A DNA stretch of 23,332 nucleotides from an uncultured Chloroflexia bacterium (GTDB lineage Bacteria > Chloroflexota > Dehalococcoidia > DSTF01 > JALHUB01), in the NCBI GenBank assembly GCA_963726245.1, contig CAVSBT010000006.1, positions 1-23,332 on the forward strand. Direction: 5' to 3'. Of this stretch, positions 1,868 through 20,842 are shown piece after piece (positions within the stretch are counted from its first letter, which is position 1; each line of letters opens with the position of its first letter). Below the pieces are notes generated by a model. It did not search any database. It saw only the letters and a list, made by a program, of their open reading frames with translations, and was not told the origin of the DNA. Made by a program: the position numbers and the translations under genes.

Positions 1868-2746
1868 ATGCGCAAAGTGGCGATCCCGCTGGTGATTCCA
1901 GAGGCGGACGCGGAGCCGCTGCAGGGCATGACCGTTGCTCTTCCTGAAGGTTCAGGCATCGGCGAGCTCCCATGGGACTTCCACGAGGTGTCGCGTGATC
2001 AAGAGCTCGAGCTGTTGCGTTCCGAGGAGCCGCCACCGGCCGTCTGGTTCCGTCTCGACCGCATTGACGATGAGGAAATCCGTCGCAAGGCAATCTCGCT
2101 CTTGGCAACTGTGCATCTTCTCGGGTCGGGGGTGGCACGGGTGTCCCAAGCGTGGATTTACCGGGACAGTCCGCTTGCGTTCACGGAAGCGAGGGCACTT
2201 CGACTTCAGTTGGTTGGTGGGGGTGCACCCCTCCTTCTGCCAGCCGGGATCAACCAGGATGCGGTCGAAAGCGCGTACGACAGGGTGACAGCCGCGCTTG
2301 CGTCGACCCCATGGCTCAGAATCAGCCTAGAGCACATGCTCCTCGCGCTGGACAGGACAGGACTGAGCAACGGCATTCTCGATTTGACCATCTGTCTAGA
2401 GAGCCTCATCAGAGTAAACACGGAGGTGTCGTTCCGTTTCTCGCATCAGATTGCCCGGCTAGTGACCAGCAGCCCATCTGAGATCGAGGACTACCAGGGC
2501 CTGCTGCACCATCTCTACACCGTAAGAAGCGGCCATGTTCACGGAACACAGCCCCAACCGAAGGCCTTGAGGCACGTGCAGCAGCGTGCTGAGGAATTGG
2601 AGGGAATCATGCGAGACGCTATCATGTACGCACTAGAGTTTCATGCCCAGCCCGGCCTTACGAAGGAGGCCTGGACTCAGCATCTGGGTCAACTGCTACA
2701 TGGCACGGCGCGGCGAATACGCGTCGATTGGGGGACGACACCATGA
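1868..2746 (+). CDS. ApeA-like HEPN-domain protein (putative RNase effector)
   Basis: C-terminal pattern LDLTICLESL...EVSFRF...LHHLYTVRSGHVHG, with an intact RxxxxH motif starting at 2525, typical of ApeA-type HEPN domains. The N-terminal ~100 aa is unrecognised. GC is lower than the flanks. Confidence 0.75.
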   Translation: MRKVAIPLVIPEADAEPLQGMTVALPEGSGIGELPWDFHEVSRDQELELLRSEEPPPAVWFRLDRIDDEEIRRKAISLLATVHLLGSGVARVSQAWIYRDSPLAFTEARALRLQLVGGGAPLLLPAGINQDAVESAYDRVTAALASTPWLRISLEHMLLALDRTGLSNGILDLTICLESLIRVNTEVSFRFSHQIARLVTSSPSEIEDYQGLLHHLYTVRSGHVHGTQPQPKALRHVQQRAEELEGIMRDAIMYALEFHAQPGLTKEAWTQHLGQLLHGTARRIRVDWGTTP

Positions 2747-3842
2747 AAGGGACTTCGAGGTCGAGGCAATTCGAGGCGAAGTGCTAGGAATACGCGTCTA
2801 CCGGGGGTTTGCCAAGCTGAGCGACTTGGCCCGGATCTCGCAGCCCGATGTCTACGACCAAGCCAACAACCCGACAGGCACTCAGCGCGATCTCAACCGC
2901 CGGCATGCCCGCGAGGCCTACCAGTACGTCAAGACCCGTAGTCTTGCCTTCTACCCAGAGATCGTGCTGCATGCGCGGGACGCATCGGTGCTAGAGTTCA
3001 GTCCAGCCGGTAGTTCCTTGCCAAACGTGGGCAAGCTGAAGGTCAACCTGGACCGCATCGTCGAACTCGGCGGAGTAGTGCTGTCGCGTGTTGACGGCAA
3101 CCACAGGTTGCACTACGCGGCCGGGCATGAGCCCGGCTTCCCTCCCTTGGACGAGATGGTGGGTTTTTGCATCATGTACGATCTTCCCCCTTTGGAGGTC
3201 GGTGCTGGCGGCGGAGAGTTGGTTCTGTTCAGGGATATCAATGCGAACCAACAAGGGATGAACACGAGTCACCTTGACAGCATCGCTCTTCGAACCGCCG
3301 AGAGGGGCCTGGAGACGCGCGACCCAATCCTCTATATAGCGGAGAGGCTCATGGATGACGACGACAGTCCATTCCACGGCCGGGTCTATCGTGGAGGCGT
3401 TAGACCTGCTGACTTCATGATCCCTTTGAGGAACGTAAAGACATCGGTTCAGTACATGCACCAGCGCTCGAAGAAGCTGGAGCAGTTCAGCGCCGACGTT
3501 CAAGCCACATTGATCAAGCGGTACTGGCAGGCGGTGAGGCAGTGGGTGCCAGACGCGTGGGAGAATCCTGGAAGATACATCGCTCTGCGGGCGACTGGGT
3601 TCTGGGCGATGTCCTTTGTTGGGTCCGCCGTCATCGATAATGCCGTCACGTCCGGCAAGATTGAGATAGGAGACATGCTGGCCGTTCTTCAATCGGGCAG
3701 GGAATGGGATTGGAGCAATTCCGGCGACTTTCGAGGATACGGCGGACGAAAGGGGGCCGTTGAGATAGCGAACATGGTTACCAAGGAGTTTGTATCCGAG
3801 GGGCTGTCGATCTCCGAGATCGAAGCCAAGCTTCGCGGATAG
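2743..3842 (+). CDS. DGQHR-domain (DndB/ParB-like superfamily) protein, DGNHR variant
   Basis: Motif series GTQRDL...YQYV...FYPEIVL...RVDGNHR (3093-3107)...ELVLFRDINANQ...YWQAVRQWVPDAW. The likely start is the ATGA overlap at 2743, one base out of frame in an AAA/GGG run. An in-frame GTG at 2781 is the alternative. Confidence 0.8.
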
Positions 3843-17895: not shown

Positions 17896-17985
17896 ACAAC
17901 CGAGGGAGATGAAGCTCAAGACTCGCAGTAACAGCCCGGTTTGCCGCTTTGGAGAAGACAGGGCGATGATCGGTCGCCGAGCGCC

Positions 17986-18015
17986 TTGCACGCCCCGGCG
18001 GCCGCCCTCTATAAT
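17986..18015 (+). promoter_or_regulatory. Putative sigma70 promoter upstream of the structured leader and zinc-ribbon operon
   Basis: TTGCAC-18 nt-TATAAT. Confidence 0.7.
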
Positions 18016-18020
18016 CCGCC

Positions 18021-18195
18021 CAGGGTCGGGGGGCGCACGCCCCAAGGCCTCTGGGCCGCGGCCCGATGCACGTGGGCGACCGAATCTTCCCCTGCCCGGT
18101 CTCTCCTTTCGCTTCGGGTTCCAACGGTTCCGGTCCCTCGTTGTTCGACTCCGGGTTGGTGAATCTGCGCCCGGCCTGAGTGCCCGCGCTTGTCC
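18021..18195 (+). ncRNA. Candidate long rod-like structured RNA (6S-like RNA or 5' leader)
   Basis: Starts just after a strong -10. Five nested helices found by eye (see findings). Family not confirmed. Confidence 0.35.
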
Positions 18196-18208
18196 CATTC
18201 ACAAGAGT

Positions 18209-18910
18209 ATGACCACAGTGGCCGACCTCTACCTCCTCCAGGAGATGGACCTCGAAATCCAGGCGAAGCAGACCGCCCTGGAGGACGTGGAGGCGCGCCT
18301 GGGCGAGAGCGAGGAGCTGGAGGAAGCGCGCCAGGAGGTGGAGGAGCAGCGCCGCCGCCTTCGCGAAGCGCAGAAGAAGCAACGTGAGGCGGAGTGGGCG
18401 GTGGAGGAGGTGCGCACGAAGATTCAGCCCGTGGAGGCGAAGCTGTACGGCGGCACCGTCAAGATTCCCAAGGAGCTGGTTGGCCTCCAGCAGGACGTCG
18501 ACGGCCTCAAGGCCCGCCAGCGCGAGATGGAGGACCGCGCGCTGGAGGCGATGTCGGCGGCGGAGGAGGTGGAAAGAGCGCTGGCGGACGCAGAGAAGCG
18601 TCGCGTGGAGCTGGAGGCTCAGTGGCAGGCGGAGCAGGAGAGTCTGCGCCGGCAGCGGGACGCTCTCCAGCTCGAGATCCAGGAGGTGGAGGAGCGCCGA
18701 TCGGAGCAAGGGTCTGCCATCGATGCCGAGATGATGCGGCAGTATGAATCCCTTCGGGCGCAGCACCAGGGGCGGGCCGTGGCCAAGGTCGAGCGCGGCA
18801 TCTGCCAGGGCTGTCGCATCACGTTGCCCATGCACGTGCTCCAGAGAGCGCGGCGGGCCAATCACACGGTGCAGTGCACAAGCTGTGAGCGCATTCTCTA
18901 CTTGAGCTGA
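18209..18910 (+). CDS. Coiled-coil C4-type zinc-ribbon protein (DUF164/CT398-like)
   Basis: MTTVADLYLLQEMDLEI start, long coiled coil, KLYGG, YE.LR, CQGC...CTSCERIL. Confidence 0.9.
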   Translation: MTTVADLYLLQEMDLEIQAKQTALEDVEARLGESEELEEARQEVEEQRRRLREAQKKQREAEWAVEEVRTKIQPVEAKLYGGTVKIPKELVGLQQDVDGLKARQREMEDRALEAMSAAEEVERALADAEKRRVELEAQWQAEQESLRRQRDALQLEIQEVEERRSEQGSAIDAEMMRQYESLRAQHQGRAVAKVERGICQGCRITLPMHVLQRARRANHTVQCTSCERILYLS

Positions 18911-20326
18911 ATGAAAGCGGTCGGCTACTTTCGAGATGCTCCGGCGGGCAAGGGCCAGCCACTAGCGGCCCAAAGCGCCGCCTTCCTCGAATTCTGTGAG
19001 CAGCAGGGCTACGAGGCCATCGCCACCTTCGTCGACTCCGTCGCGGCCGACGACCGAGGGCCCACGGGCTTCCGGCAACTGGCGGAGTTCCTTCGAGAGC
19101 CGGACAAGGGCTTTGTCGTCGTTGTCGTGCCCTGCCTGGAGGGCCTGGGCGAGACCCTGCGCGACGTGGCCCGCCGCTACTTCCAGATCGAGAGCCTGGG
19201 GGCCCAGGTTGCCTTCACGGACGGCACGAAGGACGCCGCCGAGCAACTCCTGGCTGCCTGGTCCAAGCACGCCGACGGCAAGCGCCTCAGCGATCGCGTC
19301 CGCGCCGCCATGCGCCGCAAGGCCGTCAGGGGCGAGGTGCTGGGACGCCCTCCCTACGGCTACAAGGTCGGCGTCCGTCGCCGCCTGGAGCTGGTGCCGG
19401 AGGAGGCCGTAGTCGTCCGCTACATCTTCCGCCTCTACCTCCAGGAGGGCCTGGGCATCCGCCTCATCGCCCGCCGTCTCAACGAGGAAGGGCTGAAGAC
19501 GCGGCGAAACGGCAACTGGAGCATGGTGACCATCCGGGACATCCTGCGCAACCGCGCCTACTTGGGCACCTACACCCGATTCGGCGTGCGCGTGCCGGGC
19601 AGCCACCCGGCCCTCGTCTCCGCCGAGGACTTCCGTCTGGTGCAAGAACGTCTCAGCGCCCGCCGCACCAGCTACTCGCCGCGAAGGGTCTCGCCCTTCC
19701 TCCTTTCCGGACTCCTGCACTGCGGCTACTGCCAGAACAAGATGATCGGCGTCAGCCGCCGTCAGAGCTGGCGGCGCAAGGACGCGGAAGAGGAGAGCCA
19801 GGCCTCCTATCGCTACTACCAGTGCGAGTCCCGGACCAACCAGAGCGTGTGCGACTACCACACGCGGCGGGCCGAGGAGCTGGAGGAGGCCGTGCGGGAG
19901 GCGCTGAGGGACGCCGAATCAGCCGGTCCCGCCCTGCCGGAGGCCGGCGACGAGGCGGGGGTGCTCGCCGAGTGGCAGCGTCAGGCGCAGCGCCTGCATC
20001 GACGGCTGGCGCAGGTCGACAAGCGGCTGGAGGGCTACCTGGACGCGGCGGCCCGTGGGCGCCTGGCCCGCGATAAGCTGCGAAGCCTCAGCATGGCGGC
20101 CGCCACAGACCGCCTCGCCCTGGAGGAGGACCTGGAGGCGACCGAGGTCCGCGCCCGCCAGCACGCCAACGTCGCCGAGCGCCGGCGGCAGCGGGAATGG
20201 GCGCGCCAGCGCCTCTGTGACGAGTGGGACAGTCTCCTTTTTGCCGAGCGGCAAGAGCTCTTGAGGCAGGTGGTGGAGCGAATCGTGGTCACCGACGACG
20301 ATATCCGCACCCTGCTCCGTCCCTGA
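18911..20326 (+). CDS. Large serine recombinase-family protein with a degenerate catalytic domain
   Basis: Resolvase-like N-terminus, PPYGY, EEAVVVRYIF, IARRLNEEG, W....IRDILRNRAYLG, HPALVS, LLSGLLHCGYC...YYQC zinc ribbon, coiled coil, VERIVV. YFRDA replaces YxRxS. Confidence 0.9.
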   Translation: MKAVGYFRDAPAGKGQPLAAQSAAFLEFCEQQGYEAIATFVDSVAADDRGPTGFRQLAEFLREPDKGFVVVVVPCLEGLGETLRDVARRYFQIESLGAQVAFTDGTKDAAEQLLAAWSKHADGKRLSDRVRAAMRRKAVRGEVLGRPPYGYKVGVRRRLELVPEEAVVVRYIFRLYLQEGLGIRLIARRLNEEGLKTRRNGNWSMVTIRDILRNRAYLGTYTRFGVRVPGSHPALVSAEDFRLVQERLSARRTSYSPRRVSPFLLSGLLHCGYCQNKMIGVSRRQSWRRKDAEEESQASYRYYQCESRTNQSVCDYHTRRAEELEEAVREALRDAESAGPALPEAGDEAGVLAEWQRQAQRLHRRLAQVDKRLEGYLDAAARGRLARDKLRSLSMAAATDRLALEEDLEATEVRARQHANVAERRRQREWARQRLCDEWDSLLFAERQELLRQVVERIVVTDDDIRTLLRP

Positions 20327-20333
20327 GAGCGCC

Positions 20334-20750
20334 TTGCCTGCCGCACCTCTCTACCACCTGGCTTACTCGGACGGCGCATCCAAGGGCAACCCCGGGCCCG
20401 CCGCCATCGGCGCCGTCATATTCGACCCGGAGGGCCACGAGCTCTATCGCCTTGGCAAGCGCCTGGGCACAGCCACCAACAACGAGGCCGAGTACCGCGC
20501 CGCCATCGCCGCCCTGGAGGCTGCGCTGGCCCTGGGGGCGCGCCGCCTCGAGTTGCGGATGGACTCGGAGCTCGTGGCGCGACAGATGTCCGGGCGCTAC
20601 CGGGTGCGGAACCCGCGTCTGGCCCGTCTTCACGCTCGAATGCTGGCCCTTCGCCAGCGCTTCGAGGAGGTGGTCGTGCGGCACGTGCCCCGCACAGAGA
20701 ACAAACTGGCCGACGCGATGGCCAACCAGGCCCTCCTGGAGGGGCCGTAG
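20334..20750 (+). CDS. rnhA: Ribonuclease HI (type 1 RNase H, archaeal/actinobacterial-like)
   Basis: SDGASKGNPGPA, TNNEAEY, DSELV, HVPRTENKLAD: all acidic catalytic residues present. Confidence 0.9.
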   Translation: MPAAPLYHLAYSDGASKGNPGPAAIGAVIFDPEGHELYRLGKRLGTATNNEAEYRAAIAALEAALALGARRLELRMDSELVARQMSGRYRVRNPRLARLHARMLALRQRFEEVVVRHVPRTENKLADAMANQALLEGP

Positions 20751-20752
20751 GC

Positions 20753-20808
20753 GTAGGGGCAGGCCCCCGTGCCTGCCCTATTCGGCGACCGCAGGGGGTC
20801 GCCCCTAC
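20753..20808. repeat. GTAG-type REP doublet (REPIN-like)
   Basis: GTAGGGGCAGGCCCCCGTGCCTGCCCT followed by an inverted GGCGACCGCAGGGGGTCGCCCCTAC. Confidence 0.8.
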
Positions 20809-20814
20809 CATTGT

Positions 20815-20842
20815 TTGACTCCGCTTGGGCCCCTTGTAGACT
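20815..20842 (+). promoter_or_regulatory. Sigma70 promoter for rnpB
   Basis: TTGACT-16 nt-TAGACT, ending 7 nt before the P1 helix. Confidence 0.7.

Follow-up and report, generated by a model that had tools for sequence, protein, structure and literature searches.

The arginine numbering and the residue roles used for the active site of serine recombinases come from work on the gamma-delta and Tn3 resolvases. XisF and SpoIVCA, serine recombinases in the service of their host, are active enzymes with defined recombination sites. As presented in the accessible portion of a review (PMC8987985), recruited serine recombinases are active invertases as well as enzymes of integration and excision, and a large serine recombinase (LSR) with a Ser-to-Ala exchange is described, in the available part of another source (PMC9638900), as catalytically dead with attP binding kept. 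The DNA stretch analysed here, henceforth called the window, comprises the first 23,332 nucleotides (nt), forward strand, of contig CAVSBT010000006.1 (assembly GCA_963726245.1) of an uncultured Chloroflexia bacterium, placed in the class Dehalococcoidia by GTDB, and carries an LSR-like gene at 18911..20326. This gene is likely the catalytically inactive descendant of an LSR that was captured as a vertically inherited host gene and whose product binds DNA without cutting it, as a regulator or architectural factor linked to transcription. The source genome is a bin with 82.8% completeness and 6.28% contamination.

The gene and the domains of its product are listed below, together with the ratio of non-synonymous to synonymous substitution rates (dN/dS; Nei-Gojobori, pooled over five independent close pairs).

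18911..20326, + strand: LSR-like pseudo-recombinase gene; one uninterrupted open reading frame (ORF) with ATG start, 471 codons plus stop
18911..19234, + strand: resolvase-fold N-terminal domain, amino acids (aa) 1-108, with degenerate active site; dN/dS 0.13
19235..19396, + strand: helix E and linker, aa 109-162, with the strongly conserved basic stretch RVRAAMRRKAVRGEVLGRPPYGY; dN/dS 0.12
19397..19690, + strand: recombinase (DNA-binding) domain, aa 163-260, PF07508; dN/dS 0.024
19691..19915, + strand: zinc beta-ribbon domain, aa 261-335, with C271, C274, C305 and C314; dN/dS 0.088
19916..20323, + strand: coiled-coil hairpin and C-terminal strands, aa 336-471, from AlphaFold2; dN/dS 0.16

Pfam domains were identified in the LSR-like protein above their cut-offs for Resolvase (PF00239, residues 3-142, 41.2 bits vs a cut-off of 23.3), Recombinase (PF07508, residues 163-251, 83 bits) and Zn_ribbon_recom (PF13408, residues 264-333, 51.6 bits), and residues 124-466 matched PHROG 95 "integrase" with an E-value of 1.4e-74. 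An AlphaFold2 model built on 108 relatives reached a mean predicted local distance difference test (pLDDT) score of 91.4. In this model, a resolvase-type N-terminal domain, whose strands and helices stand in resolvase order, is followed by helix E (109-139), the recombinase domain, the zinc ribbon, and a hairpin (348-437) of two coiled-coil helices (348-381 and 387-437), after which the C-terminal strands go back to the zinc ribbon. The DNA-binding domain, zinc ribbon, and coiled coil had been described as intact over 471 codons in an initial annotation made from the sequence of the window; Pfam and AlphaFold2 agree with this, and the structure model proposed there as a check presents an intact LSR architecture. 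The closest structures retrieved with Foldseek were the SPbeta, Bxb1, A118, and PhiC31 integrases, and the N-terminal domain alone matched that of TP901-1 (template modelling (TM) score 0.72) and gamma-delta resolvase (TM score 0.70). The coiled-coil region aligns to that of the A118 and SPbeta integrases, and the four Cys columns of the zinc ribbon are invariant or almost so across the family. No model for the LSR-like family exists in NCBIfam 20.0, where the best match was XisF (72.7 bits vs a 375-bit cut-off), matches in the ESM Atlas were solely Chloroflexota "recombinase family protein" clusters, and PADLOC contained no family matching the LSR-like protein.

Equivalence of active-site residues was determined by aligning a profile of 108 family members to solved LSRs. 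Family column 10 coincides with the catalytic Ser in both the SPbeta integrase (GYLRRS) and 3guv (LYTRVS), and the family xxLGx columns fall on the R..R of RLSR/SRFAR in solved LSRs. The same equivalence was obtained with a canonical LSR paralogue on contig C11 of the same genome, in which all active-site residues are kept (IYARVSS...VSG...RPEG...VDRLSR). The nucleophile motif of the window protein is Y6-F7-R8-D9-A10 (YFRDA), with Ala10 in place of Ser. Its D42...F54 stretch (DSVAADDRGPTGF) contains neither SG nor RP, P51-T52 standing for R-P, and the DRLxR region is E77-G78-L79-G80-E81 (EGLGE), with G78 and E81 replacing both Arg. As aligned, the window protein is thus without the nucleophile Ser and without three of the four active-site Arg (only R8 is kept, and P51, G78, and E81 occupy the other three positions). 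The three motif losses had been proposed in the initial annotation and were borne out by the translation and by the profile and paralogue alignments alike.

Variation of the active site was followed across the family. A word-indexed search gave 1496 matches among 8000 candidates scored; the best 120 of these were all 464-481 aa long and 59-91% identical, and their named sources were Dehalococcoidia "recombinase family protein" entries. An exhaustive search of 50%-identity representatives yielded 176 clusters at an E-value of at most 1e-30 vs 5187 at at most 1e-10, which marks it as a discrete LSR subfamily. Residue counts were taken from 205 near-full-length family members, relatives among them being non-independent observations. 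Y6 was found in 179 and R8 in 159 of the 205, and position 10 was occupied by Ser (43), Pro (36), Ala (30), or a gap (50). At position 78, Arg is absent from the eight commonest residues, and at position 81 it occurs in 35/205. Among 44 orthologues taken from genomes, position 10 varies without evident restriction, holding A (11), G (10), S (5), P (4), D (4), V (3), or T (3) along with single L, M, I, and R, and 14 of the 44 have V, K, S, or L instead of R8. According to the initial annotation, orthologues restoring YxRxS and DRLxR would argue against a dead enzyme. Each motif is indeed restored separately (Ser10, as YFRES, in the 43 members counted above; DRLGR in a few clades with Asp at position 10, L033 and L040), but not jointly, as no true family member has Ser10 together with both DRLxR Arg (R78 and R81). 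All five active-site residues were present in only two of the 205 rows (P0258 and P0268), which are canonical YARVST...LDRFGR proteins with 27-30% identity and outgroup behaviour. No alternative conserved Ser was found in the N-terminal domain of the 205 members. From these comparisons, the loss of the active site is a trait of the family and not an error.

Two further observations concern the N-terminal domain. Cys29 (codon 29, window 18995-18997) is family-specific; it is kept in 199/205 members, is Ala in the canonical paralogue, and is the most conserved and sole almost invariant residue of this domain. In one clade, Pfam no longer finds the Resolvase domain, and Recombinase and Zn_ribbon_recom persist. 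A derived LSR-like protein of 419 aa without a Pfam-detectable resolvase domain (L053) occurs in a genome from another family of the class (G044), and no zinc-ribbon gene was detected within about 1.4 kb on either side of it.

One strong orthologue of the LSR-like gene is present in each of the 41 genomes sampled from the same order (5 families, 23 genera), including 32/32 of the high-quality ones, and the other LSR paralogues in these 41 genomes are at most 35% identical. In a sample of 151 genomes of the class, 118 had some LSR match and 81 a best E-value of at most 1e-40, the next best match after these 81 being at about 1e-28. Matches at an E-value of at most 1e-30 were found in 8 of 251 genomes sampled across the phylum, of which 6 belong to the class; the two matches from elsewhere in the phylum are a canonical LSR in which every motif is present and a sequence with an in-frame TGA. 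In the gene tree, the family is separated from four canonical LSRs by one branch with a Shimodaira-Hasegawa-like approximate likelihood ratio test (SH-aLRT) support of 96, the rooting being approximate because of the long outgroup branches. The 13 taxonomic families represented require 12 changes on this tree, i.e., the minimum possible, and the median branch is 0.25 in the family vs 2-6 for canonical LSRs, about ten times shorter. Pooled dN/dS for the whole gene is 0.11, and conservation peaks in the recombinase domain (dN/dS 0.024 as listed; mean pairwise identity 0.73). An all-pairs estimate (773 pairs) was discarded, as it is saturated and overestimates omega. The open frame is kept in 44/46 orthologous loci, and the remaining two are cut by contig ends. 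The LSR-like gene is a single-copy, vertically inherited gene with all domains under purifying selection. The checks suggested in the initial annotation (synteny, vertical phylogeny, and dN/dS per domain) thus returned a syntenic gene with a tree that follows taxonomy and low dN/dS everywhere, and the gene proved neither sporadic (41/41 genomes of the order, 81/151 of the class) nor decaying (open frames in the 44/46 loci). Judged from sequence, it is a domesticated mobile-element gene, combining homology to LSRs, a fixed locus, vertical inheritance, and purifying selection.

The neighbours of the LSR-like gene are as follows.

18209..18910, + strand: CT398/CdsZ/DUF164-type coiled-coil and C4 zinc-ribbon protein, 233 aa, from Pfam
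20334..20750, + strand: RNase H (RVT_3/RNase_H fold), 138 aa, Pfam RVT_3 89.1 bits
20851..21214, + strand: rnpB, class A RNase P RNA, 307.6 bits, with a promoter-like site of its own at 20815-20842

The upstream gene matches CT398_CC (PF24481, 54 bits) and Zn_ribbon_9 (PF02591, 31.5 bits), both above the Pfam cut-off, and has the features that define the CT398/CdsZ/DUF164 family, i.e., a coiled-coil hairpin and a C-terminal CxxC...CxxC ribbon, with C198, C201, C222, and C225 invariant in 35 sequences. In PADLOC, this protein gave a coiled-coil-type match to JetC alone (E-value 6e-4), and RNase H matched no family. The ATG of the LSR-like gene abuts the upstream TGA with a gap of 0 nt (...GAGCTGAATGAAAGCG...), and the RNase H ORF starts at 20334, 7 nt after the LSR-like stop. 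The ORF coordinates thereby bear out the tight spacing noted in the initial annotation.

The zinc-ribbon gene lies directly upstream on the same strand in 45/45 orthologue loci, and its stop is at most 19 nt from the LSR-like start in 44/49 loci. RNase H was detected downstream in 26/45 loci (tblastn) and rnpB in 29/45 (blastn), two loci being cut by contig ends. Pairwise identities of the LSR-like and the zinc-ribbon proteins correlate with r = 0.90 (528 pairs from 33 loci), the LSR-like protein being the more conserved (mean identity 0.55 vs 0.43). Five genomes of the class without the LSR-like gene all keep the zinc-ribbon gene, and in three of them RNase H and rnpB come straight after it, which indicates an insertion of the LSR-like gene into, or its clean loss from, an older cluster. 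DUF164 homologues are often located beside rnhA and rnpB, and the cluster is known in other phyla, as stated in the accessible portion of PMC3372290. The recurrence of this housekeeping neighbourhood, noted in the initial annotation, is seen both in the class genomes and in that source. At one locus (L009, genome G023), rnpB matches were found upstream of the zinc-ribbon gene on the opposite strand, a local rearrangement of the cluster.

Several features of the locus bear on its origin. The locus does not have the appearance of mobile-element carriage with attachment (att) sites: it is flanked by housekeeping genes, the gaps on its two sides are 0 and 7 nt, and it is the same locus in 45/45 cases. 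No flanking repeats or att-like sites were found around it. The window ORFs scanned with Pfam included no mobile-element gene, and the GC content across the LSR-like gene (0.68-0.70) lies within the range of the window (0.59-0.75); the initial annotation had likewise read the composition as host-like and the surroundings as free of mobile cargo.

The strongest constraint falls on the basic end of helix E with the linker, on the recombinase domain, and on the zinc ribbon. These are the parts with which LSRs read DNA, and the A118-DNA complex is among the structural matches. This distribution of constraint suggests a non-catalytic, dimeric, sequence-specific DNA-binding protein. In the course of events that we propose, an ancestral member of the Dehalococcoidia would have captured an LSR between its CT398/CdsZ-type zinc-ribbon gene and rnhA-rnpB, and the LSR gene would then have been inherited vertically, the catalytic domain being kept as a fold and not as an enzyme. 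The protein would still dimerise via helix E, its recombinase and zinc-ribbon domains would bind a dyad-symmetric DNA site without cutting it, and the coiled coil would bridge sites or hold a partner. The LSR-like protein thus probably still binds DNA and is likely to work together with its zinc-ribbon partner.

That the gene is so strictly paired with one for a CT398-type protein hints at a connection with transcription. For ML1638, a mycobacterial member of the CT398 family, binding to the beta' subunit of RNA polymerase has been predicted in a preprint, with the zinc ribbon on shelf and jaw and the coiled coil reaching the sigma site (bioRxiv 10.64898/2026.07.15.738315, in its accessible portion). 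As the family of the upstream partner is predicted to dock on RNA polymerase, the LSR-like protein would most likely be a transcription-linked protein that binds specific DNA sites as a regulator or architectural factor. A more specific proposal, in which the LSR-like protein would be the DNA-targeting half of a two-protein transcription module, its recombinase and zinc-ribbon domains would find specific chromosomal sites, and its coiled coil would position the co-translated CT398-type protein for docking on RNA polymerase beta', is offered tentatively and is rather doubtful. In that case, a serine recombinase would have been turned into a class-wide transcription or chromosome-architecture factor.

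A role without recognition of a DNA sequence is unlikely. The LSR-like protein might then join RNase H and RNase P RNA in handling RNA or RNA-DNA hybrids, or its sole task might be to scaffold the zinc-ribbon protein. The presence of RNase H and rnpB as neighbours, in line with the location of DUF164 homologues beside rnhA and rnpB (PMC3372290, accessible portion), is consistent with such a role. However, these genes accompany the LSR-like gene less strictly than the zinc-ribbon gene does (26/45 and 29/45 vs 45/45 loci), their cluster with the zinc-ribbon gene exists without the LSR-like gene, and the most constrained parts of the protein are the two LSR DNA-recognition domains.

Immunity against incoming LSR elements, achieved by occupying attB or by poisoning their integrases through mixed oligomers, would agree with the retention of the dimerisation helix, the DNA-binding domains, and the coiled coil, and canonical LSR paralogues are present in many of these genomes. 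Nevertheless, we consider it improbable. The gene evolves very slowly and strictly vertically, whereas defence genes usually turn over, PADLOC returned no match to the LSR-like protein, and mixed oligomers are unlikely at an identity of at most 35% to the resident LSRs. Among the roles listed in the initial annotation, that of an inhibitor of incoming integrases seems the least likely because of the strict pairing with the housekeeping-type CT398 gene in 45/45 loci.

It is very improbable that the protein is a working recombinase or nuclease with a non-canonical nucleophile (Tyr6, Cys29, or Ser/Thr17 after a loop insertion) that carries out a programmed chromosomal rearrangement. Such an enzyme would fit the conservation of Y6 (179/205) and C29 (199/205), the Ser or Thr at position 17 in 127/205 members, and the purifying selection on the N-terminal domain (dN/dS 0.13). 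Against it, the window protein has Pro17 and Ala10, both DRLxR Arg are gone, R8 is replaced in 14/44 orthologues, and one clade is without a recognisable resolvase domain. By alignment, C29 lies midway along helix A, where the canonical paralogue has Ala, and so seems to be a core-packing position; the locus is flanked by no repeats or att-like sites.

The search for target sites of the proposed non-catalytic DNA-binding protein covered inverted repeats, intergenic gaps, and dyads genome-wide. Inverted repeats around the locus were coding-region matches and one intergenic palindrome only, and the sole motif shared by the operon upstream regions was a promoter-like TATAATC. The two elements in question are listed here.

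17984..18017, + strand: promoter-like TTGCAC-N18-TATAAT site, some 190 nt ahead of the zinc-ribbon gene
20753..20808, no strand assigned: composite 56-bp palindrome resembling repetitive extragenic palindromic (REP) elements (GTAGGGGC...GCCCCTAC), between rnhA and rnpB

The first is the probable promoter of the operon, judging from its conservation in close relatives; its -35 hexamer matches the consensus at 3/6 positions, and the site was not listed in the consensus scan. In 33/46 orthologous loci, a TATAATC precedes the zinc-ribbon start by 50-198 nt. The leader of about 190 nt (region 17984-18208 of the window) is conserved among close relatives only, and no match to the 5' leader of the zinc-ribbon gene was found in Rfam at a permissive threshold. 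The second element belongs to a family (GTAGGGGC...GCCCCTAC) of 47 copies genome-wide with GTAG heads. Of these copies, 36 are 28 bp long; almost all are perfect palindromes, and they fall into three main subtypes, in which the inner stems differ and complementarity is kept. Two genes for Y1 transposases of the REP-associated tyrosine transposase (RAYT) type are carried by the genome and would plausibly explain this family. The palindrome was rejected as a target of the LSR-like protein, since it is a 47-copy genome-wide family and 28 bp is too short, LSR sites being longer than that; it is probably not part of the system.

Beyond the operon, the remaining window is of housekeeping type (pth, aminotransferase, acetyl-CoA synthetase-like subunits, ABC transporter, greA, citrate synthase, erpA, and murE). 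At 1868-3842, the GC content is lower (about 0.59 vs about 0.70 around it). This region holds a gene for a DndB/DpdB-like protein (Pfam DndB, 35.6 bits; PADLOC DpdB, E-value 9.6e-9) adjoined by an ORF without family match and may be a small DNA-modification or defence islet.

Several observations weigh against a catalytically inactive, transcription-linked DNA-binding protein. As Ser10 (YFRES) is present in 43/205 relatives and DRLGR in a few clades, inactivity is not proven for every member. No candidate binding site was found near the LSR-like gene in the inverted-repeat, gap, and genome-wide dyad searches; the intergenic gaps are too short to hold one, and the sole nearby palindrome is the genome-wide REP-like one. 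The link to RNA polymerase is a structure prediction made in another phylum and reported in a preprint. Finally, a second copy of the locus, 98.9% identical, lies on the short contig C24 (L002/L003) and spans the zinc-ribbon, LSR-like, RNase H, rnpB, and murE genes. This copy carries seven substitutions, and one extra base at codon 269 splits its LSR-like gene. Contigs of four other DNA runs contained short pieces from related strains only. The C24 copy is probably a co-assembled or co-binned strain or an assembly error, and not a sign of decay. The reading of the gene as what is left of a decaying integrated element, or as an artefact of sequencing, to which the frameshift at codon 269 of the C24 copy and the bin contamination of 6.28% might point, can be dismissed almost entirely: the frame is uninterrupted for 471 codons in the window and likewise open in 44/46 orthologous loci, dN/dS is 0.11, the gene is present in 41/41 genomes of the order, and the C24 insertion is not among the indels listed for the contigs of the four other runs, although contigs drop rare variants.

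If an inactive LSR descendant indeed binds DNA for its host, the LSR-like family would be a natural case, conserved in much of the class, of an LSR retained solely as a scaffold for DNA recognition and assembly. Such a natural binding-only LSR would make the reading and bridging of DNA by recombinase, zinc-ribbon, and coiled-coil domains accessible to study, and it would be a candidate partner for the poorly understood CT398/DUF164 proteins, which are possible RNA polymerase factors. For annotation, it calls for caution, as the label "recombinase family protein" is no indicator of a mobile element in genomes of the Dehalococcoidia. No naturally inactive or domesticated non-catalytic serine recombinase was found described in the full-text literature, subscription journals and supplementary files being outside this search.

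Compared with known systems, the LSR-like protein has the same four-part architecture as the large serine recombinases (A118/LI, SPbeta SprA, Bxb1, PhiC31, and TP901-1; PHROG 95). Unlike these, the window protein is without the nucleophile Ser, the DRLxR Arg, and the RP motif, and its gene is without mobile element or att sites, being a single-copy, syntenic, vertically inherited host gene. Like the LSR-like protein, the Hin-type invertases, XisF, and SpoIVCA are serine recombinases that serve the host and not an element; catalysis is kept in these, whereas the LSR-like family has lost the chemistry. With the CT398/CdsZ/HP0958(FlgZ)/MSMEG_4306 family, the upstream gene shares the coiled-coil hairpin, the C4 zinc ribbon, and the neighbourhood of rnhA and rnpB. 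The accessible portions of PMC3372290 and bioRxiv 10.64898/2026.07.15.738315 mention no recombinase-like partner for this family, the word "recombinase" being absent from the former, and the pairing of a CT398-type with an LSR-like protein appears specific to part of the Dehalococcoidia. Laboratory counterparts of the apparent natural state of the LSR-like family are the engineered PLE Int S12A and PhiC31 Int S12A, which are dead yet att-binding according to the available part of PMC9638900 and to PDB titles. In these mutants, a single residue was changed in the laboratory, whereas in the LSR-like family several residues were lost naturally, a state kept across the divergence of the class.

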